Shown: positions 11,282 to 48,428 of the stretch, in pieces | Numbering within the stretch: position 1 is the stretch's first letter | How the letters are laid out: each line of letters opens with the position of its first letter | Origin: Thermoanaerobaculia bacterium | GTDB lineage: Bacteria; Acidobacteriota; Thermoanaerobaculia; Gp7-AA8 | NCBI GenBank assembly: GCA_041748075.1 | Contig: JBGTDX010000036.1 | Span: 58,505 to 122,504, forward strand | Length of the DNA stretch: 64,000 bases | Reading direction: 5' to 3' | The notes under the pieces: generated by a model | Told to the model about the DNA's origin: nothing | Database searches by the model: none | The model's input: only the letters and a program-made list of their open reading frames with translations | Program-made: the position numbers and the translations under genes

Positions 11282-11288
11282 GATTTGG

Positions 11289-16233: not shown

Positions 16234-16252
16234 GCATCAGTTGAGATTCTTC

Positions 16253-17878: not shown

Positions 17879-17942
17879 CGTCGGTTACGGTGGCGGACCA
17901 CGTTGAGATCAACGCACAGAGTGCCGGACTCATTCGCGGAAG

Positions 17943-17976
17943 CAAAAATGAGAGGGGCCGCTCTTGCGGCCCCTCT
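17943..17976 (-). terminator. Rho-independent terminator following tRNA-Gly
   Basis: Stem gaggggccgc/gcggcccctc with tctt loop, followed on the minus strand by UUUUU. Confidence 0.65.
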
Positions 17977-17989
17977 GGCTGGATACGAT

Positions 17990-18064
<75 letters not shown>

Positions 18065-18152
18065 TAACGGCTTGTGTACTCTAGGCATTGGCCCGAGAGC
18101 TTGTCAAGCGCCGTCCATAACGGCCGGTCGGCTCTGCGGTATTCCCCCCCGT

Positions 18153-28100: not shown

Positions 28101-29451
28101 GATTCTTCCAGCCATGTTCGGACTCGACGAGCAGCTTCGGTATCTCGATTCACTCCAGGCGAGCGGAATCCGGCCCGGACTCGATCGAGTGCGCGCGCTG
28201 CTCGAGCTCGCGGGCTCGCCAGAGCGTCGGTATCGCTCTGTGATCGTAGCCGGAACGAACGGCAAGGGCTCCACCGCTGCGATGCTCTCCGCCATTCTCA
28301 CGGCATCGGGTTACCGCACCGGCCTCTACACATCACCGCATCTTGTCGACATCCGGGAGCGCTGGATGATCGGGGGCGAACCGGTCAGCTCCGGTATCCT
28401 GCTCACCGCGATTGCGCGGCTCCGGGAAGCCGATGAGCGATGCGACTTTACTCCGACATACTTCGAGGCGCTGACCCTCGTTGCCTTCATCGCATTCGAG
28501 CTCGCCGGTTGTGACGTCGCGGTGCTCGAAGTCGGAATGGGCGGACGGCTGGATGCTACCAATGTCGTGGAGCCCCTCGCATCGGTGATCACGCCACTCG
28601 GCATGGATCACACGGAATATCTGGGAGCAACGATCGAGGAGATTGCGTCGGAGAAAGCCGGCATCATCCACAGGGGCTCGATTGCGATCACGTCCAATCG
28701 CGATCCCCGAGTCCTGTCCATCCTCAGTGATCGGGCCCGCGACGTCGGCGCACTGTTGCACCGCACGGCGGAAGAGGCAGTCATCACCAACGTGAGCTCG
28801 CGGATTGACGGGGTGCGGTTCGACCTCCGGACTCCTGTCGCCGGATACTCTCTCGAGAGTCCTCTGCCAGGTGATCATCAGGTGAACAACGTTGCACTGG
28901 CAGTGCGGGCGGCCGAGCTTCTTGCTCCATCACTGACGTCGATCGGCGTCTCATCGATCGAGCAGGGTGTGGCATCCGTTCAGTGGAGAGGCCGGCTCGA
29001 ACTGTTTCACCACGGCGATAAACTCGTCGTCGTCGACGGGGGACACAACTCGCATGCAGCGACTGCCATCGCCACGTTCATCAGTGCGCACCTGCCGCCG
29101 CCGCGCACCCTGGTGTTTGGCATCATGAGCGACAAGGATGTCGAGCCGACCGCGGCGGTCCTCTTCCCAATGTTCCAACGCATCGTGGTCACCAGACCCG
29201 ATCCCGATCGGGCGGTGTCGCTCGTCGCACTTTCAGAAGTCGCCCGACGCATCGGCCTCGACGTGGAAGGAATCGAGGCGCCCGAGGATGCCATCGCTCA
29301 CGCGCTGTCGCTCGAGCCGACGGCTGTGGTGATCTGCGGTTCGCTGTATCTTGCCGGGGCGGCAGTGGCCTTTTTTGACCGTAGAGCGACGACGAGGGAT
29401 GCGAGGACGAGTGCCATCGACAGAAACCATGACAGCGCGACGAGCGTGTGA
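28099..29451 (+). CDS. folC: Bifunctional folylpolyglutamate synthase / dihydrofolate synthase
   Basis: Mur-ligase P-loop VAGTNGKGST plus later folC motifs. Conserved accD-folC neighbourhood. The 3' ~150 nt overlaps the convergent gene. Confidence 0.85.
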   Translation: MILPAMFGLDEQLRYLDSLQASGIRPGLDRVRALLELAGSPERRYRSVIVAGTNGKGSTAAMLSAILTASGYRTGLYTSPHLVDIRERWMIGGEPVSSGILLTAIARLREADERCDFTPTYFEALTLVAFIAFELAGCDVAVLEVGMGGRLDATNVVEPLASVITPLGMDHTEYLGATIEEIASEKAGIIHRGSIAITSNRDPRVLSILSDRARDVGALLHRTAEEAVITNVSSRIDGVRFDLRTPVAGYSLESPLPGDHQVNNVALAVRAAELLAPSLTSIGVSSIEQGVASVQWRGRLELFHHGDKLVVVDGGHNSHAATAIATFISAHLPPPRTLVFGIMSDKDVEPTAAVLFPMFQRIVVTRPDPDRAVSLVALSEVARRIGLDVEGIEAPEDAIAHALSLEPTAVVICGSLYLAGAAVAFFDRRATTRDARTSAIDRNHDSATSV

Positions 29452-33920: not shown

Positions 33921-35618
33921 ATGCGAAGCGATCGCAAGGCACTTCTCCTGGTGGTCGCGGTATGGGCCATCAGCACGGGACTCTGGCTCAACCCCGGAAT
34001 AACGAAGCCGGATGGAGTCGGCTATTACGTGTATCTCCCATCGCTCCGGATCGACGGCGACCTGCTGTTCTTCAATGAATGGGATCGCTTCGGGATGATC
34101 GACCGGGGAGTGATTCTCCACAAAGAGGTCACCGCGACGGATCATCTCGGCAACCACTGGACGATCGGGAGTGCGCTCTACTGGTTGCCCTCGTTCCTGT
34201 TCGCTGATCTTCTGCGGACGATTCCGGCGCTTGCGCTGTTTCCGCCCGACGGGGTCTCTCTTCCGTACAACGTGGCAGTTGGCTTCGCAAGCGCGGTTGC
34301 CGGACTGCTGACACTCCTGATGGGATTCCGCGTTGCACGGGAGTTCGTGCCGGTATTTCCCGCTGCTCTCGCAACGATGGGGCTCTGGTTCGGATCGCCG
34401 CTGCTTTTTTATTCAGTGAGGAATCCGATTCTCGGGCATGCGACGTCCGCATTTGCGTGCGGGCTTGTGTTGCTGCTCAGCCTCCGGCTGCGAGTCGAAC
34501 GGGCAGCGTTCTGCTGGTTTGCTACGGGGCTTGCGGCCGGTTTCGCATTCGCGGTGCGCCCGCAGAACGGAACGTTTCTTCTGATGCCATTCGTGATCGC
34601 GGCGGGCTCCGAACGCCCGCCTCTTCAGCGGATCGGTCTGGTTCTCAGCGGCTTCGCCGTGGCCGCATTGCCGCAGGTGATCGTCAGTTTCGTGCTCTAC
34701 GGTACTCCGTACGGATTTCTCACGGGTGGCGGCGCGGCAAAGCCCTTCGCCGCGTTCGAACGGATATGGATCTGGGAGCCGATCCTCTCCTGGTACCACG
34801 GTCTGATTCCATGGAGCCCCATCATTGCGCTGGGGCTCGCGGGGCTCATCCTGCTCTGGCGACGCGACCGGCTGCTGGCAGCCGCGGGGCTTTACGCGTT
34901 CGCTTCGCAGTGGTTCGTCAACGCGACCCTCGAGCGATCGTTCTGGGGTGCGCATGCGTTCGGTCAGCGACGGTTCGACAACTGCACGATCTTCTTTCTG
35001 CTCGGCGCCGCAGTGCTTCTCTCCCGATGGCCGCGCGCAGTGCAGGTGAGCATCGTGGCAGCGACCTCTGTCTGGACGATGTCGATATTCTTCGCGGCGA
35101 TGGGGCCTCTCGATCTCGGTGCGTACTACACGCCGGCTGAGCTGGCTGCCCTGCAGTGGGCGTCCCTTTCGAGTGTAGCCGGCTACCTGAAGCCGTTCGC
35201 CTCGGTTCCTCAGGCGATGAAGGGGATTGTCGCGCTTGTCTGCCTCTGCCTCTGTGCTGCATGGGTCGCAGCGGGCGTTCTGCTGTGGCGCTTCCGAAAA
35301 AACGGCGTTGCGCCGATTGCCGTCTTCGCCGCGGTTTACTTCCTCGTCATGAGCGGTGTCCTCGCATTCGCGGGAAGCACGGGACGAAGCCGGCTGATTC
35401 ACATGCAGTCGCTGATCGGCTTCAACCGGACGGTCAGCGCAGCGCTTGGCGGAGCCGACGCACGGACCGGTCTTCTGGCGGACGAAGCGAGGTACCTCAG
35501 AAAGGCGGGTCGCATCGAGGAAGCTGAGGCAACTGAAATGGAGTTGGCCGCGCTCGAACGCGCGCGGCGCGCCGGCATCGAGCGGCTGCGCGCGATGGCA
35601 GAGGAGGAGCGAAGGTGA
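33921..35618 (+). CDS. Polytopic membrane protein, putative GT-C-type glycosyltransferase with C-terminal coiled-coil/TPR-like tail
   Basis: More than 10 TM helices with a first extracytoplasmic loop rich in Asp/Tyr (PDGVGYYVYLPSLRIDGD). 4-nt overlap with the next gene. Confidence 0.5.
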   Translation: MRSDRKALLLVVAVWAISTGLWLNPGITKPDGVGYYVYLPSLRIDGDLLFFNEWDRFGMIDRGVILHKEVTATDHLGNHWTIGSALYWLPSFLFADLLRTIPALALFPPDGVSLPYNVAVGFASAVAGLLTLLMGFRVAREFVPVFPAALATMGLWFGSPLLFYSVRNPILGHATSAFACGLVLLLSLRLRVERAAFCWFATGLAAGFAFAVRPQNGTFLLMPFVIAAGSERPPLQRIGLVLSGFAVAALPQVIVSFVLYGTPYGFLTGGGAAKPFAAFERIWIWEPILSWYHGLIPWSPIIALGLAGLILLWRRDRLLAAAGLYAFASQWFVNATLERSFWGAHAFGQRRFDNCTIFFLLGAAVLLSRWPRAVQVSIVAATSVWTMSIFFAAMGPLDLGAYYTPAELAALQWASLSSVAGYLKPFASVPQAMKGIVALVCLCLCAAWVAAGVLLWRFRKNGVAPIAVFAAVYFLVMSGVLAFAGSTGRSRLIHMQSLIGFNRTVSAALGGADARTGLLADEARYLRKAGRIEEAEATEMELAALERARRAGIERLRAMAEEERR

Positions 35619-37180
35619 CGCGGTCCCGACTCGTGCTCGCCGCATGGCTGATGCTGGCACTTCTGCTCGTGCCGGTCTTCCCGCACTTCATTTCTCCGAA
35701 CGAATTCAGCCGCTGGGCGGTTGCCGCCGCCGTCGTGGAGCAGCGAACCATCGAAGTCTCGACGCTCTTGCCCATCCTCGGCTCACGACTCGAAGATCTC
35801 TCGGAGGTCGATGGACGGATTTACTCCAACAAAGCGCCCGGAGGGGTTCTCGTCGCCCTGCCGGGGTACCTCGCCGCCCGCGTGATCGCCGGGCCGCCAT
35901 CCGCGAGCTCGCTGCGGCCCGTTGTCTACGCGATGCGATGGGCGGGGTCGACCCTGCCTCTGCTGGTGCTGGCCGTAGTCATGGTGAGGCTCGCCCGCCG
36001 CTCCGGTGCGAGCGAAGACGCCGGCGCCTTTCTTCTGCTCTCCATGTTGTTCGGCACCATTTGTTTCACGTATGGCCTCCTTCTCTTTTCGCACGCGCTC
36101 ATCGCCGCGGCCCTGTTTCTCGCGTGGGTGCTGTTGTACACACGAAAGGCTGGCGGCGTCGGAGGCGATTATGCAGCCGGTGCCCTCGTGGGGCTCGCCG
36201 TACTCTCGGAGTATCCGGCCGCAGTTCCTGCCGCGGTTCTGGTGCTCGGTTCGTTTCGCCGTCACGATCCCTCCAGGCTCGTTCGAATCCTGCTCGGCGG
36301 CGCGCCATTCGCAATCATGCTGGCTGCGTACAACACAGCAGCCTTCGGTGGGCCGTTCCATCTCTCGTCGGGATATGAGCGTGCAGGTGAGTTCCGGGAG
36401 CTCGCGGGCTCCGGCCTCTTTGGAATCGGGCTGCCTTCTCCCGCGATCCTGCTGCGGCTGCTCTTTGACCCATCGAAGGGACTGCTGCTGTTTTCACCTC
36501 TGCTTCTTCTCGCGCCGATGGGATGGAAGCCTCTGCGCGCCGCCCTGGGCCGGCGCGCTTTGTTCACCCTGGTTGCTGCGCCGCTGTCGATCCTGCTTCT
36601 TTATTCGGGATATCCGAACTGGCACGGAGGCTGGACCGTCGGTCCGCGCTATCTTGTAGCGGCGTTACCATTTCTCTGTTTTCCGCTTGCATTCGTCTGG
36701 CGGGGGCGACTCGCCGCCTGCCTTGCTGGATACTCCGTGACGGCAGTTGTGGTCACGTCTCTGGTGTTTCCCTTCGTGCCGCCGGCGTTTCCTTTCCCCT
36801 GGGGATCGTTCGCGTTTCCTCTCATGCGTGACGGTCTGATCACGCCGAATGCTCTGCATTTCGTTTCTAGCGGGCTCGCGGTGATCGTTCCGGTGCTCGT
36901 GGTGATGATCGCACTGGTCGCGGTTTTCAGGAGCCGGGAGCTGCTGTTTGTAGCGGCGGGGATTCTTTTCGCGATGGCCATCGGCCATGTCGCCGAGCGT
37001 CATGTCGATCGATCGATCGGTGTGAGGATTCAGAGAGGTTACGTAGCGGAAGTCTACTTCCTGGATCGGGGTGCGCTGCCGGAGAGCGCCGGGCCGGGTG
37101 TGCCCCTTCCCGCCAGGCTCATCGAACGGTTGCGTTATGAAATGACGTTGCCGCCGACATCGTGGCCTTTCGAGGACTGA
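35615..37180 (+). CDS. Polytopic membrane protein, putative GT-C (ArnT/PMT-like) glycosyltransferase
   Basis: 12+ TM helices and N-terminal layout reminiscent of the PMT_2 family. Translationally coupled to the upstream GT-C-like gene. Confidence 0.55.
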   Translation: MTRSRLVLAAWLMLALLLVPVFPHFISPNEFSRWAVAAAVVEQRTIEVSTLLPILGSRLEDLSEVDGRIYSNKAPGGVLVALPGYLAARVIAGPPSASSLRPVVYAMRWAGSTLPLLVLAVVMVRLARRSGASEDAGAFLLLSMLFGTICFTYGLLLFSHALIAAALFLAWVLLYTRKAGGVGGDYAAGALVGLAVLSEYPAAVPAAVLVLGSFRRHDPSRLVRILLGGAPFAIMLAAYNTAAFGGPFHLSSGYERAGEFRELAGSGLFGIGLPSPAILLRLLFDPSKGLLLFSPLLLLAPMGWKPLRAALGRRALFTLVAAPLSILLLYSGYPNWHGGWTVGPRYLVAALPFLCFPLAFVWRGRLAACLAGYSVTAVVVTSLVFPFVPPAFPFPWGSFAFPLMRDGLITPNALHFVSSGLAVIVPVLVVMIALVAVFRSRELLFVAAGILFAMAIGHVAERHVDRSIGVRIQRGYVAEVYFLDRGALPESAGPGVPLPARLIERLRYEMTLPPTSWPFED

Positions 37181-37221
37181 GCCGAGGGCTTCCGGCAGAA
37201 TCGCCGCGCACGTTCGTTCCG

Positions 37222-38067
37222 TCAGGAGCGGTTGGAAACCTGTTCGGGGACCTCGGCTGGAACCGGAGGCGTGTCCTGCACTTTTTTCGTCCGGAAAATC
37301 GGATGCGAGTAAAGCTGCTTCTTGTGCAGCTTGTAGAAAAACATCGTCTTGAGAATTCCCAGTCCGTAGCGGGAGGCGCGCCAGAACCCGATCTGGGAAG
37401 CCTCCGGGAAATACCGCGTCTGGATGGGGACCTCGCGGATCACCATCTTGCTCGCCACTCCCTGAGCGATGATCTCAGTGTCGAAGATGAAGTCGTCCGA
37501 GTTCGCCTCGAGGTTGACCGTCTCGAGATAGTGGCGCGAATAGGCGCGGAAACCGGAGTGATATTCGGAGAGGAAGACGTAAAACGTCGCGTTCTCGATC
37601 ATGGTCAGAAAGAGGTTGGCGAAGTACTTCCACTTCGGCATGCCACCCTCGATGGGGCGGCCGCCCAGCATGCGCGAGCCGAACACCGCGTCGCATTCAT
37701 CGTTGAGCAGGGGCTTCACGAGCTCCGGGACGATCGTGGGGTCGTACTGGTGATCCGGATGCACCATGACCATGATCTCGCCGCCCAGCTCATCCATCGC
37801 GGTCCGGTAGCATGTTTTCTGGTTGCCGCCGTACCCCCGGTTCCGGGTGTGAACGACGGTGCGGATGCCGAGCTCCCTGGCCACCTCGACGGTCCGGTCG
37901 CGAGAGAGGTCATCGACCAGAAGGATCTCGTCGACCCACTCCTGGGGAATGTCGTTGTAGGTCGCGACCAGGGTTTTTTCCGCGTTGTAGGCAGGAAGGA
38001 CGACCACGACCTTCTTCGAGCGGCGGGGAGGAATCTCGTCCATATGAGGAGGGCTGGAGAATATCAC
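37222..38067 (-). CDS. GT2-family polyprenol-phosphate glycosyltransferase (Dpm1/CsbB/GtrB-like)
   Basis: VVVVLPAYNAEKTL...VDDLSRDRT and DxD region typical of GT-A GT2 enzymes. No TM core. Size of undecaprenyl-phosphate sugar synthases. Confidence 0.8.
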   Translation of the reverse strand: MIFSSPPHMDEIPPRRSKKVVVVLPAYNAEKTLVATYNDIPQEWVDEILLVDDLSRDRTVEVARELGIRTVVHTRNRGYGGNQKTCYRTAMDELGGEIMVMVHPDHQYDPTIVPELVKPLLNDECDAVFGSRMLGGRPIEGGMPKWKYFANLFLTMIENATFYVFLSEYHSGFRAYSRHYLETVNLEANSDDFIFDTEIIAQGVASKMVIREVPIQTRYFPEASQIGFWRASRYGLGILKTMFFYKLHKKQLYSHPIFRTKKVQDTPPVPAEVPEQVSNRS

Positions 38068-38178
38068 ACGGAATGCAGGAGGACGGAATGCTGAATCCTG
38101 CGTAAAGAACCGAGTCGCGCGGCTTTACTACTGCAGCGCCATCGGTTATACGAGAGCCCGTGAAGCCCGGAGGGAGTC

Positions 38179-38216
38179 CCATTCAACATTCTGCATTCCA
38201 CATCCAACATTCCGTC
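38179..38216 (+). repeat. Degenerate heptamer tandem repeat (CATTCAA/CATTCTG/CATTCCA/CATCCAA/CATTCCG) upstream of the YfhO-like gene
   Basis: Five consecutive 7-nt units read directly from the sequence. Confidence 0.4.
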
Positions 38217-38236
38217 CGCCGTTTTCAAACTCACCA

Positions 38237-40627
38237 ATGAACATGATTCCGGGTCAGAGGCGTGACTGGCTCGCGGTCCTGCTATTGCTCGGACTGGCCA
38301 CGCTTTTTTTTGCCGATGTCCTGTTCCTCGGCCGCAGCCTCTACCTGCGGGACCTGACCCGCTACTACTATCCGACCAAGAAGATCGTTCGCGAGGTGAT
38401 TTTCAGCGGCGAGATGCCGTACTGGAACCGCTTTTATTCGGCCGGCCAGCCGATGGCTGCGAATCCGGAGTACGAGATCTTTTACCCGCCGCAGTGGCTC
38501 GTCCTTCTGCCGTCGTACGACTTCGGCTACAGACTGCACATCGTCTTTCACGTTTATCTTGCCATCGCCGGGATGTACCTGCTGCTGCGTTCGATGAATC
38601 TTCAGATCCGCACGGCCTTCTTCGGAGCGGTGGTGTTCGCGCTGGGGGGCGTCTACCTGTCGCTGGTGAACCTGCTCCCGATCATGTTTGCGGTCGCCTG
38701 GATGCCGCTGATCTTTCTGTTCACACGGCGGTGCTTGTTGATGCCGAACCTGAGAGATTTTTCGCTGGCGGCGCTTCTCATGGGTCTGCAGATGCTCGTG
38801 GGAGAACCGACGACACTCGTTCAGACCTGGTTCCTGATGGGCTGTTACGGACTTTACCGGGCGTGGCATAACCCCGGCCGGCTCAGCGTCGTTGCGAGAA
38901 ACACGCTTCTCATCGGACTGCTTGGCGTAGCCGGACTGCTCGTCGGCGCCGTGCAGATGTTTCCGGCGATCGATCACGTGGGCGACTCGATCCGCTCGCG
39001 CCCGTTCGACTTCAGCCTCGTCACGGCATGGAGCATGCCGTACGCGAAGCCATTCGAGCTCATCTTTCCAAACGTCTTCGGACACATGGCAAAAGACAAT
39101 GTCGTCTGGTACTGGGCGAGCGGCCTGTACAAAGGTACCGGCTCGGCGTTCCTCTACAGCATCTATCCAGGGCTCGGAACCGCAGCACTTTTCCTTGCTG
39201 CCATAGCGGTGCGGCCGCGGGGCGGAGGTCTGGTGCTGGCCATCGTGGCAGCCTCGACCGTGCTGGCCCTCGGCGGCAACACGCCGCTGTTCCGGTTGCT
39301 CTATGACCTGAAGCTGGGCACGTCCGTCCGGTATCCGGAAAAATTCGCAATGATGGGACTCTTCGCGCTGCTGATGCTCGGTTGTTTCATGTTCGAGCGC
39401 GTGCTTCGCCGCGACCGCGCCGTGATTCAGGCGGCAATGGGTATCGCGCTCGGAACGGCGATCGTCGCCGGAGCGATTCTGATCTTCTCCTTCACCCCCT
39501 GGTACCAGGAGGCGTTCTCGAAACTGTGGGGAACCCGCGCTACCGGTCCGGCGAAGATCATGGCGGATATCTATCGGATCGACTGGGCCGTAGCGCTTGC
39601 GAGAGGGTTGATCCTGGTGGGACTGCTGTGGTGGGCAAAGGAAAAGGGGACTCCGACCCGGTGGTTTGCAGCCTTCATGCTTTTCGTCCTGCTTGATCTC
39701 GGAATGATCGGAAAGGAGCTGACGCCGACCCATGGCCGCGATTTCTTCACGCCCCCTCCGGTGGCCGCAACGTTCGATCAGGACAGGGAAAATTACAGGA
39801 TCTTTCACGAGGCCGACTGGTACGGCTCGACCGACACGGCCCGGAAGTATTTCTCGACGGGGAGCTCTGTCTACTGGGTCGTGCGCAATGGCCTCTACCC
39901 GATGACGCCCGCGACGTGGGGATTCTCCATGGTACTCGAGCGCGACTATGACAAGACGGCGCTGCTTCCCACCGTCGATCTGGTCGACGCGATGTGGAAG
40001 GTCAAGCAGGAACGGCCGGATGACTGGAGCGAGATCTTCATGGCTATGTCGAACGCCCGGTATCGCTCCGCCTTCGTGCCCTTTGAAGAGGAAGCGAAAC
40101 GGGTCAAGGGCAATCACAGGATCTCACGCCCCATGGAATTCGAGCGCGTGGAGGCGTGGCCCCGATATTACTTTGCCGAACAGATGGTGCGCGTCGAGGA
40201 TGCCGCCGAGTTCACGAAGATGCTGAGCGAGGCCTCATGGAGCCGAAGTGTCGCTTTCGTCCACATCCCGGCCTTCGAGCCCGCGGAGGGAGTCGTGAAA
40301 TCGGTCGAGGAGACGAACAACACGGCTCGAATCGAAGTCGAGAGCGAAGGCCGATCGTTTCTGGTCATGAGCGTGACGCCGCATAAGTACTGGAGTGCGA
40401 CCCTCGACGGCACGCCCGTCGAGCTGCATGTCACGAACATCGGGTACCAGGGAGTTGTCATTCCCCCGGGCCGGCATGTCGTGGAGATGCGCTACCGGAA
40501 TGATGTCGTCGTTGCGTCCGGCGGCATTTCAGTCCTCGCGACGTTGTGTCTGATCCCCATGGCCATCTTCCGGTGCAGGGCAACGGGCGCGGCCGAGCCG
40601 CGCGCGCATTCGCAGGGTGTCGAATAG
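38237..40627 (+). CDS. YfhO-like polytopic membrane protein (GT-C-type glycosyltransferase, paralog 2)
   Basis: 796 aa with N-terminal multi-TM core and C-terminal beta-rich periplasmic domain plus a final TM. Shares motifs with paralogs 1 and 3. Confidence 0.7.
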   Translation: MNMIPGQRRDWLAVLLLLGLATLFFADVLFLGRSLYLRDLTRYYYPTKKIVREVIFSGEMPYWNRFYSAGQPMAANPEYEIFYPPQWLVLLPSYDFGYRLHIVFHVYLAIAGMYLLLRSMNLQIRTAFFGAVVFALGGVYLSLVNLLPIMFAVAWMPLIFLFTRRCLLMPNLRDFSLAALLMGLQMLVGEPTTLVQTWFLMGCYGLYRAWHNPGRLSVVARNTLLIGLLGVAGLLVGAVQMFPAIDHVGDSIRSRPFDFSLVTAWSMPYAKPFELIFPNVFGHMAKDNVVWYWASGLYKGTGSAFLYSIYPGLGTAALFLAAIAVRPRGGGLVLAIVAASTVLALGGNTPLFRLLYDLKLGTSVRYPEKFAMMGLFALLMLGCFMFERVLRRDRAVIQAAMGIALGTAIVAGAILIFSFTPWYQEAFSKLWGTRATGPAKIMADIYRIDWAVALARGLILVGLLWWAKEKGTPTRWFAAFMLFVLLDLGMIGKELTPTHGRDFFTPPPVAATFDQDRENYRIFHEADWYGSTDTARKYFSTGSSVYWVVRNGLYPMTPATWGFSMVLERDYDKTALLPTVDLVDAMWKVKQERPDDWSEIFMAMSNARYRSAFVPFEEEAKRVKGNHRISRPMEFERVEAWPRYYFAEQMVRVEDAAEFTKMLSEASWSRSVAFVHIPAFEPAEGVVKSVEETNNTARIEVESEGRSFLVMSVTPHKYWSATLDGTPVELHVTNIGYQGVVIPPGRHVVEMRYRNDVVVASGGISVLATLCLIPMAIFRCRATGAAEPRAHSQGVE

Positions 40628-41305
40628 CATTCGGAGAGAATCGCGAACGATCCTCACGCGCGAATCGCTCGAGTTGATCCAGACCACGGGTACCTCCCGG
40701 ATTCTGTAGCCCATCTGGCACGCGATCATCAGCATTTCCACGTCCCATGCGAAGCGATCGACGGTGGCCCGCTCGAATACGCGCTTTGCTGTTTCCCGAC
40801 GGAGCAGTTTGAAACCGCACTGCGTATCGGCGAACGGCAGTCCGGTGATGGTGCCCATCAATGCGTTGAAAACCTTTCCCATGCGCTGACGGTACCAGGC
40901 CTGACGCACCCTTACCTCGGATTGTTCGAGAGCTCTCGATCCGATGACCAGATCAGACGACTCGAATGCGTTGAGTAGTTTCGAGAGCTCTTCGATCGGT
41001 GTTGACAGGTCGGCGTCACTGATCAGTACGGCTTCGCCGGTAGCCTCCATGATGCCTCTGCGGATCGCGTATCCTTTCCCGGCATTGGACCGGTATCCGA
41101 CCAGACGGAAAGGAACGACATCCGACGATGTGGCGTTGACGACTGCGGCCGTTTCGTCGCGGCTGCCGTCATCGACGATAATCACTTCATGGATGTTTCC
41201 CTCGCGCGCTGCAAACCCGGCGATGCGTTCGATCGTATCCGGAAGGCGGCGCGCCTCGTTGTACGCTGGGATGACGACCGAGATCGATCGTGGTGAGGAA
41301 TTCAT
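40529..41305 (-). CDS. GT2-family polyprenol-phosphate glycosyltransferase (dolichyl-phosphate hexosyltransferase-like)
   Basis: SVVIPAYNEARRL...IIVDDGSRDET...ISDADLSTP and QCGFKL motifs typical of DPM1/GtrB-like GT2. Divergent from the M20 gene (21-nt spacer). The 3' end overlaps the YfhO-like gene by 99 nt. Confidence 0.8.
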   Translation of the reverse strand: MNSSPRSISVVIPAYNEARRLPDTIERIAGFAAREGNIHEVIIVDDGSRDETAAVVNATSSDVVPFRLVGYRSNAGKGYAIRRGIMEATGEAVLISDADLSTPIEELSKLLNAFESSDLVIGSRALEQSEVRVRQAWYRQRMGKVFNALMGTITGLPFADTQCGFKLLRRETAKRVFERATVDRFAWDVEMLMIACQMGYRIREVPVVWINSSDSRVRIVRDSLRMLFDTLRMRARLGRARCPAPEDGHGDQTQRRED

Positions 41306-41326
41306 GCCGGGAAGGGTAAACCAGAT

Positions 41327-42721
41327 TTGAAGCGTGTGCGTCTGTCCCGTGGTTTCTACGTTGCCGTATTGCTTGCGGTCTCAGTGACCCTCCTGATCGC
41401 CGGCTGGTCGCTGTATGTGAAAAAGACGACTCCGGAAGAGCTGCTCTACGTACCGAAGCGGGCAGTCATGACGCCGGAGCTCGAGCTGCTGCGCCGGTAC
41501 GTGCAGATCGATACGACCAATCCTCCGGGCAACGAAACGGAGGGCGCCACGTTTCTGGTCGATGTACTGAAGCGCCACGGTATCGAGTCGGAGCTCATCG
41601 AATCGGCTCCCGGCCGCGGAAACGTCTACGCCCGCATCGAGGGACGCCGTCCCGGAGAGGGACTGTTGCTGCTCAATCACATCGACGTGGTGGCTGCTGA
41701 TCCGGAGCGATGGAGCAAGCCTCCATTCGAGGGAGACGTGGAGCACAACATGATGTACGGGCGGGGAACGCTCGACATGAAAGGCGTTGGCATTACCCAG
41801 CTCCTTGCATTCATCGAGCTTGCGCGTTCCGGCCGCGTTCCGGAGCGCGACGTTGTTTTCCTTGCGACCGCCGATGAGGAGCAGGGAAGCCGGCTTGGTA
41901 TCGAATGGCTGCTCGAGCATCGGCCGGATGTCATCGAGGGTGTGCGCTACGCGGTCAATGAAGGGGGAATCACCGAGACCATCAAAGAGGAAGTCGTCTA
42001 TTTCGCCGTGGAGATTGGTTCGCGGCAGATGGTCTCGCTCAGGCTCAGCGCCTCCGATCGCGATACGATCCGGCGGATCCGGCTGGAGCTCGAGCCGGAG
42101 TTCACCTCCAGGGATCCCGAGCGTGTTCTTCCCGAGGTGCGCGAGTATTTCCGGTCGATTGCGCCGAAGAGGCTGGCCTTCGCCCCGTATCTTCAGGACA
42201 TCGACGGTACCATCGGGCAGGGCGAGTTCTGGAGGCTGCCCGAGCCCTATCGAGCCCTGACGCGGAACGACATTCTCATGGACGGCCCGTCGGAGCGAGG
42301 CGAGGGGTTCGAAGCCGATCTCTATCTCATCAATCTGCCGGACGAAGATCCCGATCAGGTAATCGCCCGGTTCCGCGAGCGGCTCTCGGGTCACGATGTC
42401 GACATCGAAGTCGTGCGCAAGATGGGCCCTGCGCCAATTTCCTCGACCGATACACCGATGTTCCGTCTCATCGTCGAAACAGTGCAGCGGGAGTACGGCA
42501 GCAACGTGACGGTGGGGCCATTCATCCTTCACGCCGGGACGACGGATTCACGCTACCTGCGCGGAAAAGGCATCGATGTATACGGCGTCTGGCCCTTTCC
42601 GGTCGACTATCACCAGTCGCAGGGTATTCATGGAGCAGACGAGAGAGTGCGTCTCGACTGGTTCATGAGCGGAGTGAGCATGATGAAAAATCTGGTTCGC
42701 GAATACGCCACCGTCGAGTGA
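41327..42721 (+). CDS. Secreted/membrane-anchored M20-family metallopeptidase (paralog A)
   Basis: TTG start. N-terminal signal-anchor. M20 metal-binding motifs (NHIDVV, TADEE, NEGG) and dimerisation domain. Confidence 0.8.
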   Translation: MKRVRLSRGFYVAVLLAVSVTLLIAGWSLYVKKTTPEELLYVPKRAVMTPELELLRRYVQIDTTNPPGNETEGATFLVDVLKRHGIESELIESAPGRGNVYARIEGRRPGEGLLLLNHIDVVAADPERWSKPPFEGDVEHNMMYGRGTLDMKGVGITQLLAFIELARSGRVPERDVVFLATADEEQGSRLGIEWLLEHRPDVIEGVRYAVNEGGITETIKEEVVYFAVEIGSRQMVSLRLSASDRDTIRRIRLELEPEFTSRDPERVLPEVREYFRSIAPKRLAFAPYLQDIDGTIGQGEFWRLPEPYRALTRNDILMDGPSERGEGFEADLYLINLPDEDPDQVIARFRERLSGHDVDIEVVRKMGPAPISSTDTPMFRLIVETVQREYGSNVTVGPFILHAGTTDSRYLRGKGIDVYGVWPFPVDYHQSQGIHGADERVRLDWFMSGVSMMKNLVREYATVE

Positions 42722-43064
42722 AGGACCGTGTGACCGTCTCACACTTCATCGTTCGACCTGCATCCTGAGTCGAACGCGCAGCCGCCCGAGAACGTGTTCA
42801 ACGTCCGATCGTCGAAAGGTCTGAGGACTCGCGAGGCAGGGAATCGACTTACAGTATTCCGCTGAGCCCGATTGCCACTCGTTGGCAGAAACGGGTGACG
42901 AAAAATGTCATACGCCGCGTCCCATGTGTCTTTCTGGTTTTGTAAGTGTTTGTAAACAAAGAAAGATTTTGGCTGGCCAAGGTTGGTACAACCCTTGACT
43001 ATAGGGAACCCAGAATCGGTCTCAAACAGGCGACAATTCAACCCTATCAACAGGAGGCTTTCAC

Positions 43065-43565
43065 ATGATGTCCCGGAAACAGAAAGGTTTTACCCTCATC
43101 GAGCTGCTCATCGTGGTCGCGATCATCGGCATTCTCGCCGCCATCGCCATCCCGAACCTGCTCACCGCCATGCAGCGCTCCAAGCAGAAACGCACCATGG
43201 CTGACATGCGCGGCATCGCCACCGCATGGGAAGCCCGCGCGGTCGACGAGAACCGTTACAACGCCGCGGGTGTCACGTTCCCCACAGTCACGCCGACGCA
43301 GGCTCAGATGGCTGGCATGCTCTCCCCCACCTACATCAAGACCCTCCCGCCCAATGACGGCTGGAACAACGCGTGGGACTACTACATCGATGCGGCTGTC
43401 GGTTCCACCAGCGCCTCGGCCCAGAACTACTTCATTCGATCCAGGGGCCGGGACAACCTGGCGATTACCGCTCCTGTCGATGGTGCGACGACCAACTTCG
43501 ATTGTGACATCGTCTACACCAACGGCAGCTTCGTGGTCTATCCGGATGGAGTTCAGCAGAACTGA
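43065..43565 (+). CDS. Type IV pilin / pseudopilin-like protein (paralog 1)
   Basis: AGGAGG RBS. Class III signal peptide KG|FTLIELLIVVAIIGILAAIAIP with Glu at position +5. ~165 aa. Confidence 0.8.
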   Translation: MMSRKQKGFTLIELLIVVAIIGILAAIAIPNLLTAMQRSKQKRTMADMRGIATAWEARAVDENRYNAAGVTFPTVTPTQAQMAGMLSPTYIKTLPPNDGWNNAWDYYIDAAVGSTSASAQNYFIRSRGRDNLAITAPVDGATTNFDCDIVYTNGSFVVYPDGVQQN

Positions 43566-43599
43566 ACGGGTGATCTTCAGGTATCGTGAGGTCGGTGAG

Positions 43600-43629
43600 A
43601 GGGCGTCCTGTGGACGCCCTTTCTTTTTG
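43600..43629 (+). terminator. Rho-independent terminator after pilin paralog 1
   Basis: Perfect 9-bp stem agggcgtcc/ggacgccct with tgtg loop, followed by TTCTTTTTG. Confidence 0.8.
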
Positions 43630-43687
43630 TGAGATCGAGCCGGACCCGGCAGGGACGTCCGCGCGTGCCCGTTCAGGAGGAGATTCA

Positions 43688-44194
43688 ATGCGACGTTCCA
43701 CTGAGAACAGCAGCGGGTTCACCCTAGTCGAGATGATGATCGTACTAGGCGTCGTGGGGGTCCTCGCTGCAATAGCGGTTGCCGCTTTCGGCAACGCGAT
43801 GAATCGGACCCGCCAGAAAAAATCGATGGCCGATATGCGGGCCGTCGCGATTGCGTGGGAGTCGCGCGCATCCGACCACGGAAGGTACAACGCCGCCGGG
43901 TTCACCTACCCGTCGGACGATTACAACCCCGGTGACATGGTGGGCCATCTGACACCAACCTACATCCGCCATCTGCCTCGTGCTGACGGATGGGCGAACG
44001 CTTTTGATTTCGCGGCCGACGAGTCGCTCGGAGCCGTGTCCGAGGTGCAGACCTACGCGATCCGTTCCCGGGGACGGGACGGTATTGCCGAGGGTCCGGT
44101 CTATGCGTCGACTCAGACGACCCGGTTCGACTGCGACATCATCTTCTCGAACGGCAATTTCGCCGTTTATCCGCAGGGCGTGACGCTGGAGTGA
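43688..44194 (+). CDS. Type IV pilin / pseudopilin-like protein (paralog 2)
   Basis: RBS caggagga. SG|FTLVEMMIVLGVVGVLAAIAVA prepilin N-terminus. Body is collinear with paralog 1 (shared KKSMADMRAVAIAWE, TYIRHLP, YAIRSRGRD and RFDCDIIFSNGNFAVYPQGV blocks). Confidence 0.75.
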   Translation: MRRSTENSSGFTLVEMMIVLGVVGVLAAIAVAAFGNAMNRTRQKKSMADMRAVAIAWESRASDHGRYNAAGFTYPSDDYNPGDMVGHLTPTYIRHLPRADGWANAFDFAADESLGAVSEVQTYAIRSRGRDGIAEGPVYASTQTTRFDCDIIFSNGNFAVYPQGVTLE

Positions 44195-44391
44195 TTCGCC
44201 TGCTCGTGGCGAACCTGCAGCGGAGGACGGTCATTGTGGCGAGCGAATGAACCACTCATCGGTACGTTTCCGCGGAGCAGGCTTCATTAGCAGCGATAAT
44301 GGCTGACGCCAACGTGGCGAAAATGGACCGGCACGCGGCGTTATCCGTGCACTCCCGCACGTCCCCGTGTAAGCTGTAGGTTGTCCGCCTC

Positions 44392-45798
44392 ATGACATTG
44401 CCTCGACGCTTACTCGGATGCCTCGCGCTGCTGCTGATCGTCCTCTCGGGCGGCTCCTGCAGGAAGTCGGAAGCCGTGGCGGAAGATCCCGCCGATCTCG
44501 AGGCGGAGCAGTACTTCATCAGCTATCTCCGGATCGATACGTCGAACCCGCCGGGCAACGAGACCGCCGCCGCCAACTTCTTTCATCAGATTTTTCAGAA
44601 GGAAGGAATCGAATCCCGACTGGTTGGCCCGAACCCCGCCCGGATGTCGGTATACGCGCGGCTGCGCTCGGGCGGTTCTGCGCCTGCGCTGGTGCTCATG
44701 CACCATCTCGATGTCGTGCCTGCCGATGACGCGCACTGGACGGTTCCTCCGTTCGAGGGAGTCTCGAAGGGCGGTTACATCTGGGGCCGGGGTGCGCTCG
44801 ACATCAAGTCCATGGGCGTTGCAAACCTCATGGCGATGCTCGACCTGAAACGATCCGGAGCCACCCTGAATCGCGATGTGATTTTTCTCGGAGTCGCTGA
44901 CGAGGAAGTGGGTGGAGCCATGGGAGCTCAGTTCCTGCTCGAGAAACACCCCGAGCTCTTCGAGGGGATCGGGTACGTGCTCAACGAAGGAGGATCGAAC
45001 GAGACGATCGTCGATTACGTTTCGTACTGGGGAATTGAGATCGCGCAGAAAGTTCCTCTCTGGGTGCGCATCTCCACGAAGGGAAGGGCGGAGCATGCGG
45101 CGGTTCCCCCCGACTCGGGCGGCAGCGCGGCGCAGCTGCTCGATATTCTCCGTGACCTCCAGGCCATGCCGCGGCCGTATCACCTCACCCCCGCCGTGCG
45201 TGACTACTTTCTCTCATTGGCGAAAGCGAAGAAGGGAGAGAAGCAGGAGATGCTGCTGAATCCCGAACGTTACGAGAACAACCCGCAGCTCGCCGCGAGG
45301 CTCCCTGCCGGCAGCCGGTCCCTTTTGACCCATACGATGGCGATCACGCGACTTCAGGCGGGCAGTGTGATCAACGCCATGCCCACGGAGGCTTCCGCAT
45401 GGCTGGACTTCCGTCTTCTGCCCGGTTCGTCACCCCAGGCGATGGTCAGAGAGCTCGATAGAGTGATTGGAGATCGGGGAGAGCTCGAGGTCGTGCTCGC
45501 GGGGATCACGACGCCGCCTGCGCCGTCGAATACCGATCTTTATCAGGCACTCGAACGTGTGATGCGGCGCGCCGAGCCGCGCTCGGTAGTCGGGCCGCTC
45601 GTTTCCGCGGGCACCTCTGACAGCCGCTTTTTCCGTGCGCGCGGAGTTCCTACCTACGGGATCTCTCCGTTCAAAGTGAATTACTACGATGGAGACACTG
45701 TCCACGGACCGGATGAGCGGATCCGGAGGACGTTCTTTCTCCAGGGTGTCGGGGTGATGAAGCAGATCGTTCGCGAATTCTGTGTCGAACGGGGATGA
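44392..45798 (+). CDS. M20-family metallopeptidase lipoprotein (paralog B)
   Basis: Lipoprotein-type signal (LIVLSGGSC). Same M20 motifs as paralog A (HHLDVV, VADEE, NEGG). The two N-terminal regions are close paralogs. Confidence 0.8.
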   Translation: MTLPRRLLGCLALLLIVLSGGSCRKSEAVAEDPADLEAEQYFISYLRIDTSNPPGNETAAANFFHQIFQKEGIESRLVGPNPARMSVYARLRSGGSAPALVLMHHLDVVPADDAHWTVPPFEGVSKGGYIWGRGALDIKSMGVANLMAMLDLKRSGATLNRDVIFLGVADEEVGGAMGAQFLLEKHPELFEGIGYVLNEGGSNETIVDYVSYWGIEIAQKVPLWVRISTKGRAEHAAVPPDSGGSAAQLLDILRDLQAMPRPYHLTPAVRDYFLSLAKAKKGEKQEMLLNPERYENNPQLAARLPAGSRSLLTHTMAITRLQAGSVINAMPTEASAWLDFRLLPGSSPQAMVRELDRVIGDRGELEVVLAGITTPPAPSNTDLYQALERVMRRAEPRSVVGPLVSAGTSDSRFFRARGVPTYGISPFKVNYYDGDTVHGPDERIRRTFFLQGVGVMKQIVREFCVERG

Positions 45799-45862
45799 AG
45801 GTTCCCGGAATCCTGAGCCCGCCGGGCCGGACAGGAGATGTTCGACCACTCGAGGTCGCACC

Positions 45863-47989
45863 GTGAGGGCCAGATTTCTCTACGCTGCACTTGTTGCCCT
45901 CGCGCTCGTCCCGTTTCTTCCGGCATTGATTCGTGGCGAGGTCTTCACCCTCCGCGATCACAGCGACTACTTCATTCCCCTGCATCAGTACACGACGGAC
46001 CAGATCCTGGCCGGAGAGCTTCCGCTCTGGAATCCCCTGAACGGGAACGGTGAGCAGTGGCTGGCCAATCCGCAGACGGCGGTTTTTTATCCGCCCGCGC
46101 TCGTGTTCCTTCTTCTGCCGTTCGCAACGGCATACGTGCTCTTTCTGGCGCTGCACGTCGCAGTCCTTGCCGCGGGATCTTTCCTGCTCTTCAGGCGATG
46201 GGTGGATCGAGGTCCCGCGTTCTTCGGTGCGGTGTGTCTTTCGCTTTCCGGACCGACGCTCTCTCTGCTGGATGTATCGAACAACCTGCGAACGTTCGCA
46301 TGGATCCCGCTGGTTCTCTGGGCCGCACTCGAGAGAACAGGAACTGAGTCCCGGCTGCCGGTGACAGTTCCCTCGACGCTTCTCGCCCTGCTCTTTCTGG
46401 GAGGCGAGCCGTTTCTGGCCCTCGTCGGGGCGTTGCTGTTCAGCATCATCGCCGTAAGCAGAAAGCGTTCGGGAGCGCTGCGGGAAATCGGTCAGGCCGG
46501 CATCCTGGCGGCGCTTCTCTCGATGGTACAGATCATTCCATTTCTGGGGATGCTGGCCGGAAGCGATCGCGCGAGCGGCTTCGAGCGCGAGCTTGCCTTC
46601 CGCGAGTCGCTGCATCCCGCCGACTGGTCGCTCCTGACACTTTCTCCAGCGCTGTCGGGAGGCGAGGGTCTGATTGAGTCTTCGCAGAGTTACATCCCGA
46701 TCCTTTACGCCGGTACGGCGGTAGTCTTCCTTGCACTCCTGGGCGTGGCAGGCGCGCTGCGACGCGACGCTGCGCATCGGAGCGTCGTGTTCGCATTCAC
46801 CGGTCTCTTCGCCGGCGTTGCCGTAGTTGCGGCGGGCAGCCACCTCGGTTCTGCAGCCGAGGTACTCGTCGCATTGAAGGTGACGGTGAACCGGTACCCG
46901 GCACGCCTCATCCCCTTTGGAGCTCTGGCTGTTTGTGCGCTCGCGGCCATTGGGGCTCACTCGCTGCGAATGTCAGGGCGGGGAACGCGCGCTGCCGCGC
47001 TCGCAGCGCTTGTCGCGCTCGTGGCGTATTCGGTCAGTAATCATGACCCGGTAGATCCGGCGGCGGTTCCGCTGGCGGCCGGGCTTCTGGCCCTGCAGGG
47101 TCTGCTTCTCCTTCTCATGATTTTGAAGCCGGACCGGTTGCGTCTGATCGTGCCGCTGGGGCTCCTGGTTGCCGCAGACCTCCTCGTTGCTGCACGGCCT
47201 CTGCTCATGACGGGCCCACATCCGGCAGAACTTCCGGCGTTCGTCGGCGGGATCGAGCCGTCGATGAAAATTGCGCGCCTTCCGGACCTGGACCGCCGCA
47301 GCGACTCCTCGCGCCTGGATTCATTGCCCGGCTACACGAATCTTGCGGCGGAAGTCCACAACATCTCGACGGCGGCTCCAGTGAGCGATCGCCGCGCGAT
47401 GCAGCTTCACGACCAGGCGCTATTCACGCCGGACGCCGCGTTGTTGCGATTCATGTCGGTTGGCTATCTCATTACCAATCGGCCGTTGAGTGCGCCTGGT
47501 ATCGCGCCGGTTGCAACGTCGGGTGCTGTACGGCTCCATACCCTTGCGGGTGCGTGGCCGATGGCGACACTCTGGAAGGACTCGCGCCCGCTGGAAGCTG
47601 TGCTGAACAGCTTCGAGTCACCAGGTGCGGCAATCCATCTGAAGCCGGATGGCGAGGCCCACATTCAACGGATGGGCAGCAGCGAGGCGGTCGTGCGAAT
47701 ATCGACGGATGCACCCGCAATGCTCGTACTGAATCAACTCGATGCAGCAGGATGGACAGTTTCCGTGGATGGAGAACCCGCAGAAGGATTACGGGTGGGC
47801 GGACTCTTCCGCGCCGTGCGCGTTCCGGAGGGAGATCACCTCGTGCACTGGCGATACGCGCCTCCGTTTTTCACGATCGGTCTCATGATTTCGCTGTTGA
47901 CTGCGCTGTTTCTGGTCATGATGACAATTCATTTGTCACGCAGCGCGCGAGGTGTTGTAGGATGGCGAAACAGACGCGCCAGACGTTGA
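45863..47989 (+). CDS. YfhO-like polytopic membrane protein (GT-C-type glycosyltransferase, paralog 3)
   Basis: Start set at the in-frame GTG giving MRARFLYAALVALALVPF. The ORF-track start at 45782 would overlap the M20 gene and encodes a non-hydrophobic leader. Shares motif block with paralogs 1 and 2. Confidence 0.6.
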   Translation: MRARFLYAALVALALVPFLPALIRGEVFTLRDHSDYFIPLHQYTTDQILAGELPLWNPLNGNGEQWLANPQTAVFYPPALVFLLLPFATAYVLFLALHVAVLAAGSFLLFRRWVDRGPAFFGAVCLSLSGPTLSLLDVSNNLRTFAWIPLVLWAALERTGTESRLPVTVPSTLLALLFLGGEPFLALVGALLFSIIAVSRKRSGALREIGQAGILAALLSMVQIIPFLGMLAGSDRASGFERELAFRESLHPADWSLLTLSPALSGGEGLIESSQSYIPILYAGTAVVFLALLGVAGALRRDAAHRSVVFAFTGLFAGVAVVAAGSHLGSAAEVLVALKVTVNRYPARLIPFGALAVCALAAIGAHSLRMSGRGTRAAALAALVALVAYSVSNHDPVDPAAVPLAAGLLALQGLLLLLMILKPDRLRLIVPLGLLVAADLLVAARPLLMTGPHPAELPAFVGGIEPSMKIARLPDLDRRSDSSRLDSLPGYTNLAAEVHNISTAAPVSDRRAMQLHDQALFTPDAALLRFMSVGYLITNRPLSAPGIAPVATSGAVRLHTLAGAWPMATLWKDSRPLEAVLNSFESPGAAIHLKPDGEAHIQRMGSSEAVVRISTDAPAMLVLNQLDAAGWTVSVDGEPAEGLRVGGLFRAVRVPEGDHLVHWRYAPPFFTIGLMISLLTALFLVMMTIHLSRSARGVVGWRNRRARR

Positions 47990-48083
47990 AACGCTGTGAA
48001 TCATGATTCATAAAGTTCTCGCAATGATCCCGGCGAGCCCGTAGTAGAATGTCGCACTTCCGATCCCACATCCGAGGAAGTTC

Positions 48084-48398
48084 ATGCAGAGCATCGATGA
48101 TCGTCTGAATCAGATAATCCGCGAGTTGATTGGTAACGGAATTACTCTGGTGCAGGCAGTGGAAGCCTTCGAAGGCAAATACATCGTGGCCGCGATGGAA
48201 GCGAATCGCGGAAACATCACCAAAGCCTCGCGGCTTCTCGGCGTGCACCGCAACACGCTTCACAATAAATTGCGTTCGCAGACGATGCTCAACGGTTTCG
48301 CGGCATCCGCTCGGCCGGTGCGGCGCAGAGTTCAGGCGAGAAGTGCCAGGACGGCATCGGTTCGCGAGACGCCGCGTAAACCCAGAAAATCCAGATAG
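48084..48398 (+). CDS. Small Fis-family HTH DNA-binding protein
   Basis: EANRGNITKASRLLGVHRNTLHNKLRS is a strong match to the Fis/NtrC-type HTH_8. 104 aa with basic C-terminal tail. Confidence 0.7.
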   Translation: MQSIDDRLNQIIRELIGNGITLVQAVEAFEGKYIVAAMEANRGNITKASRLLGVHRNTLHNKLRSQTMLNGFAASARPVRRRVQARSARTASVRETPRKPRKSR

Positions 48399-48428
48399 CT
48401 TTTTCCTTCCCGAGGTTCTCTGTCTTCC

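Follow-up and report, generated by a model that had tools for sequence, protein, structure and literature searches.

We analyzed a 64,000-nucleotide stretch (hereafter the window) of the genome of an uncultured, soil-type Thermoanaerobaculia bacterium (phylum Acidobacteriota; GenBank assembly GCA_041748075.1, contig JBGTDX010000036.1, positions 58,505 to 122,504 of the forward strand), in which two type IV pilin genes lie between genes for M20 metallohydrolases and polytopic membrane glycosyltransferases. An open reading frame (ORF) listing and domain scans gave the gene order GT2a, YfhO1, GT2b, M20A, pil1, pil2, M20B and YfhO2 with the two family-2 glycosyltransferase (GT2) genes on the minus strand (Table 1), and confirmed the order, ORFs and domains described in an initial annotation of this DNA. 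The robust unit of the locus is an M20 gene together with a gene for a YfhO-type GT-C glycosyltransferase, arranged as YfhO1 followed by M20A on one side and M20B followed by YfhO2 on the other. This conserved M20-GT-C gene partnership is previously undescribed.

Table 1 Features of the pilin, M20 and YfhO locus and of related genes in the window.
Feature	Position in the window	Strand	Description and domain matches
GT2a	37222-38067	-	Short DPM1/AglJ/PpgS-like family-2 glycosyltransferase, divergent from YfhO1; PF00535 at 74 bits
YfhO1	38237-40627	+	796-aa polytopic YfhO-type GT-C-fold membrane glycosyltransferase; PF09586 at 22.9 bits
GT2b	40529-41305	-	Second family-2 glycosyltransferase, between YfhO1 and M20A; PF00535 at 93 bits
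M20A	41327-42721	+	Signal-anchored extracytoplasmic M20 metallohydrolase with degenerate lid domain; PF01546 at 105.4 bits
Palindrome TGAC-N7-GTCA	42896-42910	+	Putative enhancer-binding-protein site 5' of pil1
Sigma-54-type promoter element TGGTAC-N5-TTGA	42984-42998	+	5' of pil1
pil1	43065-43565	+	Type IVa major-pilin-like prepilin; PF07963 at 43 bits, PF08334 at 23.9 bits
Intrinsic terminator of pil1	43597-43623	+	12-bp stem with 8 GC pairs, then T-run
pil2	43688-44194	+	Second pilin, fast-evolving; ORF open from 43586; PF07963 at 29 bits
M20B	44392-45798	+	Exported M20 metallohydrolase with canonical lid (dimerisation) domain; PF01546 at 109.2 bits, PF07687 at 47.2 bits
YfhO2	45782-47989	+	YfhO-family GT-C membrane protein, coupled to M20B; PF09586 at 55.3 bits; alternative start GTG 45863
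YfhO0	29298-31586	-	Third YfhO-like gene; no PF09586 match
Two large polytopic membrane proteins	33921-35618 and 35615-37180		Upstream of GT2a; no Pfam match

Loci of relatives were mapped by tblastn and comprised a close group and a distant Thermoanaerobaculia group (individual loci are denoted by L numbers). YfhO1 is located directly 5' of M20A in 13/13 close loci, and YfhO2 follows M20B in 14/14. The start of M20A and the stop of YfhO1 overlap by 4 nt in L002, L005, L006, L007, L009 and L012, and 8/11 loci offer a start for YfhO2 that gives the same 4-nt overlap with the M20B stop, which in three of them is the sole candidate. Moreover, an 84-kb metagenomic contig (L161; JGI 3300044834, Ga0467070_0000240) carries a single 1304-aa YfhO1::M20A ORF (8001-11915) with a pilin gene next downstream. 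The transmembrane (TM) anchor of M20A is kept in this ORF, which gives the fusion a coherent topology. In the genomes neighbouring this fusion, the junction is a 4-nt GTGA/ATGA overlap with the two genes in different frames, and the fused ORF may be a true Rosetta-stone fusion or else the product of an indel error at the overlap. Among 47 M20 loci from other clades or phyla, none has a pilin gene and none has an adjacent gene for a membrane protein of at least 8 TM segments. These gene junctions show that each M20 gene is normally linked to a GT-C gene by predicted translational coupling, and is once fused to it, so that the "peptidase plus GT-C unit" of the initial annotation holds.

YfhO1 and YfhO2 share 28% identity, and YfhO0 is equally distant from both. 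YfhO2 scores above and YfhO1 below the PF09586 cut-off of 28.5 bits, and most YfhO1 orthologs have a precomputed PF09586 match. When an AlphaFold2 model of YfhO1 (pLDDT 82, pTM 0.86) was used in a fold search of the PDB, nearly all of the 14 best matches were GT-C enzymes (AftD, ArnT, STT3, Pmt4 and EmbA/B), with E-values of 1e-4 to 4e-2, a probability of about 1.0 and TM-scores of 0.3-0.5; sequence searches of the PDB with YfhO1 and YfhO2 gave no matches. As in GT-C enzymes, YfhO1 combines a polytopic N-terminal module with an acidic residue in the first extracytoplasmic loop, where R38-D39 is invariant. Tandem copies of YfhO1 were observed in L009 (two), L010 (three) and L012 (two).

The best NCBIfam matches of GT2a are AglJ and PpgS, all below cut-offs, and GT2a is a putative polyprenyl-phosphate-sugar synthase. 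Among close relatives, 11 have a locus long enough to include GT2a; its identity there is 75-85%, and it adjoins YfhO1 in nearly all of them. GT2b best matches an ArnC-like model (81 bits, below cut-off), and both GT2s also match PpgS below its cut-off. GT2b is found only in the window, L003, L017 and L162 (4/15 close loci) and is missing from 10 other close relatives. Its 3' end overlaps the convergent 3' end of YfhO1 by 99 nt, and the divergent starts of GT2b and M20A are separated by 21 bp, so that each promoter must sit inside the other gene.

M20A and M20B both exceed the PF01546 cut-off of 24.6 bits and are 35% identical over 441 aa (E 9e-81). In a neighbor-joining tree of 91 M20 sequences from 80 genomic loci (200 bootstraps), a split with 88.5% support set the M20A and M20B sequences apart from the M20s of other clades and phyla. 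The initial annotation, which named M20 genes that are not closest paralogs as a ground for refutation, is thus not refuted on this point. The A clade comprises three subclades and has 100% support, and the M20B sequences alone form a clade in only 11.5% of bootstraps. More than 100 M20A orthologs in databases, all from Thermoanaerobaculia or Acidobacteriota, are 49-97% identical to M20A; given the 35% identity between M20A and M20B, the A/B duplication is therefore ancient and much older than the species. The N-terminal block shared by the two proteins had been taken as a sign of their clear paralogy. However, IDTxNPPG is family-wide, being present in at least 600 retrieved stretches and in many phyla among the 80 loci kept, and is thus no evidence of a close relationship between M20A and M20B.

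The five metal ligands (the His and Asp of HxD, the bridging Asp, Glu and the C-terminal His) and the catalytic Glu are kept in M20A, M20B and their close orthologs. The lid domain differs between the two. All 23 A-clade sequences have lost its GxxxH and NxxP motifs by deletion, whereas the lid His and Asn are kept in M20B and in 47 outgroup M20s, with the adjacent Gly and Pro in nearly all. Consistently, PF07687 (M20_dimer) matches M20B and has no match in M20A. The AlphaFold2 model of M20A (pLDDT 90) has a DapE-like two-domain fold in which a lid-like alpha/beta domain is still present. These data show that M20A and M20B are old paralogs and that M20A is a lid-degenerate derivative; the tree would fit a B-like ancestor from which M20A branched off and evolved fast. 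In distant M20A-like proteins (the first M20 of L036, L045, L049, L060, L061 and L075), the C-terminal metal-binding His is replaced by Asp, Gly or Ala besides the loss of the lid motifs, which suggests a pseudoenzyme or an altered metal site.

Both M20s had been annotated as carrying secretion signals, a signal-anchor in M20A and a lipobox in M20B. The export of both and the anchor of M20A were borne out, with a single N-terminal TM helix at the start of all M20A orthologs, but the lipobox is less certain. The signal peptide of M20B ends in SGGSC, and the Cys after the h-region is kept in 13 close orthologs. The residue at -1 to this Cys is however Q, H, E or F in most close orthologs, which makes the lipobox non-canonical, and distant M20B orthologs have a plain signal peptide without Cys. 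With the lipobox taken as [LVI][ASTVI][GAS]C at the end of a signal peptide, the LSGGSC of the window fits a loose, PROSITE-type pattern. M20B is possibly lipid-anchored, and the N-terminal signals show both M20s to be predicted extracytoplasmic, membrane-tethered enzymes.

The proteins encoded by pil1 and pil2 are 51% identical and have canonical class III leaders (KQKG|FTLIE in pil1 and NSSG|FTLVE in pil2) with Phe at +1, Glu at +5 and a hydrophobic alpha1 helix. The N-terminus of pil1 is similar to PilA of Geobacter and Myxococcus and to GspG. The globular part of both pilins is GspG-like, but neither pil1 (67 bits) nor pil2 (47.7 bits) reaches the cut-off of 88.85 of the GspG equivalog TIGR01710. 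Homologs of these pilins are encoded downstream of PilB-PilT-PilC-PilS-PilR in L100, beside a prepilin peptidase and GspH/PilV/PilW/PilX in L045, and beside PilT in L012 and L161; the position behind PilB-PilT-PilC-PilS-PilR indicates that pil1 and pil2 are type IVa major-pilin-like. In the window, PilT is located about 36 kb from the pilins. In the pilin tree, pil2 forms a long branch next to pil1, and it lacks P22/N23; the sequences indicate that the pilin duplicates are recent and lineage-specific. The C-terminal tail of the pilins is variable, with ...P[EDQ]G[VT]Q followed by 1-4 variable residues.

Alignment of upstream regions revealed a TGGYAY-N5-TTGM element before the first pilin gene in 11/11 close-group loci and before 4 distant-group pilins, compared with a background of 0.03 expected matches of this regular expression per 260 nt. 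A palindrome, TGAC-N7-GTCA, is present in 10/11 of these element-carrying close-group loci (L003 fails the expression) and at 4 distant-group pilins, about 70-110 nt upstream of the promoter element across loci and about 90 nt upstream of it in the window. A strict sigma-54 consensus scan of the window found nothing near pil1 at up to 2 mismatches, so the element was seen only by aligning the upstream regions of relatives. In scans of sigma-70 promoters and terminators only the pil1 terminator stands out, and the overall counts are at shuffle level. Neither a sigma-54 motif nor the palindrome was found in the region upstream of pil2, and the window contains no gene for a sigma-54 activator. 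Given its sigma-54-type promoter and strong terminator, pil1 would form an autonomous unit between the M20 genes.

The full arrangement is kept in L003, L010, L017 and L162 of the close group, as the initial annotation would predict. A pilin follows M20A in 9/9 close loci with sufficient contig, and also in L161 and L162. A pilin lies upstream of M20B in 5/10 assessable loci (the window, L003, L010, L017 and L028), and in one metagenome-assembled genome (MAG) the two halves of the arrangement are on different scaffolds (L012 and L021). In the distant group, which is much more divergent, the M20s share 33-43% identity with those of the close group and the flanks are unrelated. L036, L049 and L075 of this group have the order M20A-pilin(s)-M20B-pilin-YfhO1-like, in which the YfhO1-like gene directly follows a pilin, and in L045 the order M20A-pilin-M20B-pilin is followed by the prepilin peptidase and the GspH/PilV/PilW/PilX minor pilins. 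These data show that the M20A-pilin-M20B linkage survives between two deeply diverged subgroups with unrelated flanks. The contiguous M20A-pilin-M20B core is probably ancestral, being shared by both deep subgroups and the basal branches of the close group, with later splits in some lineages. In L012 and L161, the genes right after the pilins form a PilT-(RuvX)-MltG-kinase/TonB_C block (13246-18068 and 13271-18075, respectively). In the window, this block (2007-6741) lies about 36 kb upstream of the pilins and is inverted, indicating that a rearrangement either split it from the pilin locus or joined both. The kinase/TonB_C gene of the window (2007-3878, minus strand) encodes a weak Ser/Thr kinase-like domain and a C-terminal TonB_C, an architecture that is kept beside MltG in relatives.

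The region has a flat GC content (0.59-0.64) and housekeeping flanks in the window (serine hydroxymethyltransferase (SHMT), RNase R, MutL, LpxC, SmpB and SerRS), which place the locus in the core chromosome and rule out a mobile or foreign island. Rfam and tRNA scans gave no match inside the locus. An exact look-up of pil1 found no record in public assemblies. Of the public genomes, a Thermoanaerobaculia MAG (GCA_035512555.1) is the nearest; its YfhO1 is 98% identical, and its own gene calls show the same order. The upstream side of the locus contains YfhO0, SHMT, a sirohaem-synthase-like gene and the two Pfam-less polytopic membrane proteins; relatives have either a 565-aa or a 521-aa membrane protein upstream of GT2a, and the window and L162 have both. 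Six large polytopic membrane proteins are encoded in 48 kb (44-1993, 29298-31586, 33921-35618, 35615-37180, 38237-40627 and 45782-47989), and the first of them showed no similarity to the PMT_2-like neighbour in L161. Downstream of YfhO2 are genes for a stand-alone Fis-type helix-turn-helix (HTH) protein, RNase R, a TPR protein and a response-regulator/PP2C protein. In all relatives, the Fis-type HTH_8 protein (48084-48398, plus strand; 104 aa) is encoded directly behind YfhO2 and ahead of RNase R, with 66-86% identity. Other genes of the window encode a secreted S8 subtilase and a bacterial archaeo-eukaryotic release-factor-like protein of baeRF family 10 (11901-13013, minus strand; 100 bits).

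The initial annotation explained the locus by a single segmental, mirror-like duplication that placed one peptidase plus GT-C unit on each side of the pilins. Paralog pairs do flank the pilins in mirrored order, and M20A and M20B are probably nearest paralogs of each other, but the likeness to a mirror ends at gene order. The paired genes are all on the plus strand, which an inverted duplication would not give, and their internal order is reversed (YfhO1 precedes M20A, and M20B precedes YfhO2), which a tandem one would not give. Nucleotide comparison within 37000-48500 revealed no duplication arms, the only direct match being 44 nt that encode the IDTxNPPG motif. The divergences are old and unequal (identities of 35% for the M20s, 28% for the YfhO proteins and 51% for the pilins), YfhO0 is no farther from YfhO1 and YfhO2 than these two are from one another, and the pilin copies are recent and lineage-specific. 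Furthermore, GT2b is a variable insertion without a right-hand counterpart, M20 and pilin genes alternate in tandem in the distant group, which has both M20s but only a YfhO1-like gene, and half of the assessable loci have the right-hand unit away from the pilins. Such a duplication is therefore very improbable, and these comparisons show that the present "mirror" order arose from juxtaposition of blocks and rearrangement, not from one duplication. A tandem duplication of an M20-pilin unit was also considered, but the pilin tree does not mirror the A/B split of the M20s and such an event cannot be established.

Based on these analyses, we propose with moderate confidence that these genes form an envelope locus conserved in Thermoanaerobaculia, in which two ancient M20 plus YfhO-type GT-C units surround one or more sigma-54-driven major type IV pilin genes beside DPM1/PpgS-like GT2s and would serve periplasmic glycosylation, with the pilin as the most probable acceptor. 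In the cytoplasm, the GT2s would attach a sugar to polyprenyl phosphate; after flipping, the YfhO-type GT-Cs would move it to a periplasmic acceptor, most probably the pilin. The tethered M20s may act as accessory partners of the GT-Cs, which remove N-acyl groups from the glycan, lipid-linked or already transferred, or edit it in another way, following the logic of the ArnC-ArnD-ArnT and PpgS-deacylase-Rv3779 routes; alternatively, they may trim the variable C-terminal tail of the acceptor pilin. M20A may form a heterodimer with M20B and borrow its lid residues. This route is proposed by analogy with the CsbB/YfhO, TfpW and GT2-deacylase-GT-C systems, and what the M20s catalyse and which acceptor is used are inferred. 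As suggested by the initial annotation, the pilin or its glycan may plausibly be the substrate of these enzymes. A more specific version, which we find rather doubtful as a whole, is that the M20s are obligate co-translated (occasionally fused) partners of the GT-Cs, forming an undescribed two-enzyme periplasmic unit that edits the glycan (for example by N-deacylation) or prepares the acceptor on a type IV pilin, and that the lid-degenerate M20A is functional only as a heterodimer with M20B or when docked to YfhO1.

Several observations weigh against pilin glycosylation by such units, and some of them fit a different reading: the M20-GT-C units may be real pairs that modify another envelope acceptor (lipopolysaccharide, exopolysaccharide or another protein), with the pilins as neighbours by inherited synteny. 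No pilin is found near M20B-YfhO2 in 5/10 assessable loci (L013, L014, L021, L027 and L032), and the third A subclade (A3; L039 and L056) has a YfhO-like gene followed by an M20A-like gene without pilins. With its own sigma-54 unit and strong terminator, pil1 is predicted not to be co-transcribed with the M20 genes. A metagenome scan from the pilin side gave 43 loci with full-length homologs, of which 5 have an M20 gene, and an M20 gene is present in 0/12 of the pilin-homolog loci with at least 1.5 kb on both sides. The six large polytopic membrane proteins and the nearby LpxC also favour another acceptor. In favour of the pilin, Wzy_C (TfpO/PilO-like) or PMT_2/TPR membrane enzymes are often encoded downstream of the M20-less pilin homologs, indicating that a membrane glycosylation enzyme beside this pilin family is common and that the M20 link is clade-specific. 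In addition, the M20A-pilin-M20B core is kept between the subgroups despite their low M20 identity and unrelated flanks, it abuts the prepilin peptidase and minor-pilin operon in L045, and a pilin directly follows M20A wherever this could be assessed in the close group, as well as in L161 and L162. We therefore consider another acceptor possible but somewhat unlikely.

The coupling and the chemistry that we propose also meet objections. The start of YfhO2 in the window is ambiguous (45782 or 45863), with the gene call in the 98%-identical relative starting 65 nt after M20B; the YfhO1-M20A coupling is interrupted by GT2b in the window itself; and the L161 fusion stands alone among about 240 listed homologs. 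We noticed no small GtrA-like gene in the locus, although no dedicated search for a GtrA/GtcA-type flippase was run. To our knowledge, M20 enzymes do not deacylate sugars, and they normally require a free alpha-carboxylate. The M20s may instead be ordinary periplasmic exopeptidases for peptide nutrition, whose adjacency to GT-C and pilin genes is mechanistically meaningless. In support of this, M20B has all canonical catalytic and lid residues and belongs to a broadly distributed PRK07906/PRK09133-like family that is stand-alone in other phyla, and a secreted subtilase is encoded in the same window. However, 4-nt overlaps with GT-C genes in two independent pairs and a fused ORF argue for stoichiometric co-production, the M20A clade lacks the lid residues used by canonical M20 peptidases and its distant members also the metal-binding His, and none of the 47 outgroup M20 genes has such neighbours. 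A purely nutritional role is thus improbable, and periplasmic glycosylation with the pilin as acceptor is the reading that we prefer.

If the M20-GT-C coupling is functional, it would add a hydrolase step to the extracytoplasmic glycosylation route of GT2, flipping and GT-C transfer, provide a candidate enzyme class for steps of the "missing deacylase" type, and represent a pilin accessory gene of a new kind, in a class of Acidobacteriota that is widespread but uncultured. If it is not, the locus is a well-conserved piece of the Thermoanaerobaculia chromosome. M20A is in addition a clean case of an M20 paralog that has lost the lid catalytic residues while keeping the metal site, which suggests a heterodimeric or scaffold role. 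A search of the literature library for YfhO with pilins, M20 with pilins and Thermoanaerobaculia with pili found no paper with an M20-pilin or M20-GT-C link, and we know of no M20 hydrolase that is a pilin accessory protein.

In the dimeric M20 enzymes DapE and aminoacylase-1, the lid His and Asn motifs complete the active site of the partner subunit. M20A and M20B share the two-domain fold, the H/D/E/E/H ligands and the catalytic Glu with DapE, aminoacylase-1, carboxypeptidase G2 and Sso-CP2, and M20B also has the canonical dimerisation (lid) domain with its His. They differ from these enzymes in being exported, membrane-tethered and paired with GT-C genes, and M20A lacks the lid His and Asn motifs. 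The order of GT2, deacylation and GT-C transfer that we propose has a precedent in the modification of lipid A with 4-amino-4-deoxy-L-arabinose (Ara4N) by ArnC, ArnD and ArnT, in which ArnD is a CE4-type deformylase. In routes of this type, the GT2 makes a lipid-linked N-acyl amino sugar, which is transferred by the GT-C after its deacylation. The resemblance lies in the GT2s, with an ArnC-like model as the best named match of GT2b and both GT2s matching PpgS, all below cut-offs; ArnD is not an M20 enzyme, so the link is by analogy only, and we know of no M20 enzyme that acts on a glycolipid. In the mycobacterial galactosamine (GalN) route of PpgS and Rv3779, a GT2 is likewise followed by deacylation and a GT-C, and the deacylase is still unknown (PMC5964476).

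For the pilin side, the closest parallels are in Pseudomonas aeruginosa, where the GT-C arabinosyltransferase TfpW is encoded next to pilA and glycosylates the pilin, and where a Wzy_C-type O-oligosaccharyltransferase gene, TfpO/PilO, lies beside pilA (bioRxiv 10.1101/2020.04.19.049825; PMC11841053). As in these systems, a polytopic glycosyltransferase gene adjoins a pilin gene in L036, L049 and L075, and the sigma-54-type promoter is shared with pilA. In the window, however, M20 genes separate the GT-C genes from the pilins, and the likeness considered here is one of gene placement. For the glycosyltransferase pair, the counterparts are CsbB/GtlA (GT2) and YfhO/GtlB (GT-C), which glycosylate teichoic acids in Bacillus, Listeria and Staphylococcus (PMC5836110; PMC11983588). 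Here too a small GT2 gene (GT2a) stands beside a gene for a YfhO-family polytopic GT-C (YfhO1), and the presumed logic is the same, with a cytoplasmic lipid-phosphate-sugar synthase followed by extracytoplasmic transfer. In contrast to those systems, the host here is a Gram-negative-type Acidobacteriota without teichoic acids, and the GT2s are short, without the C-terminal TM helices found in CsbB and GtrB. Moreover, the locus couples each GT-C to an M20 hydrolase, for which those systems have no equivalent, and has pilin genes embedded in it.

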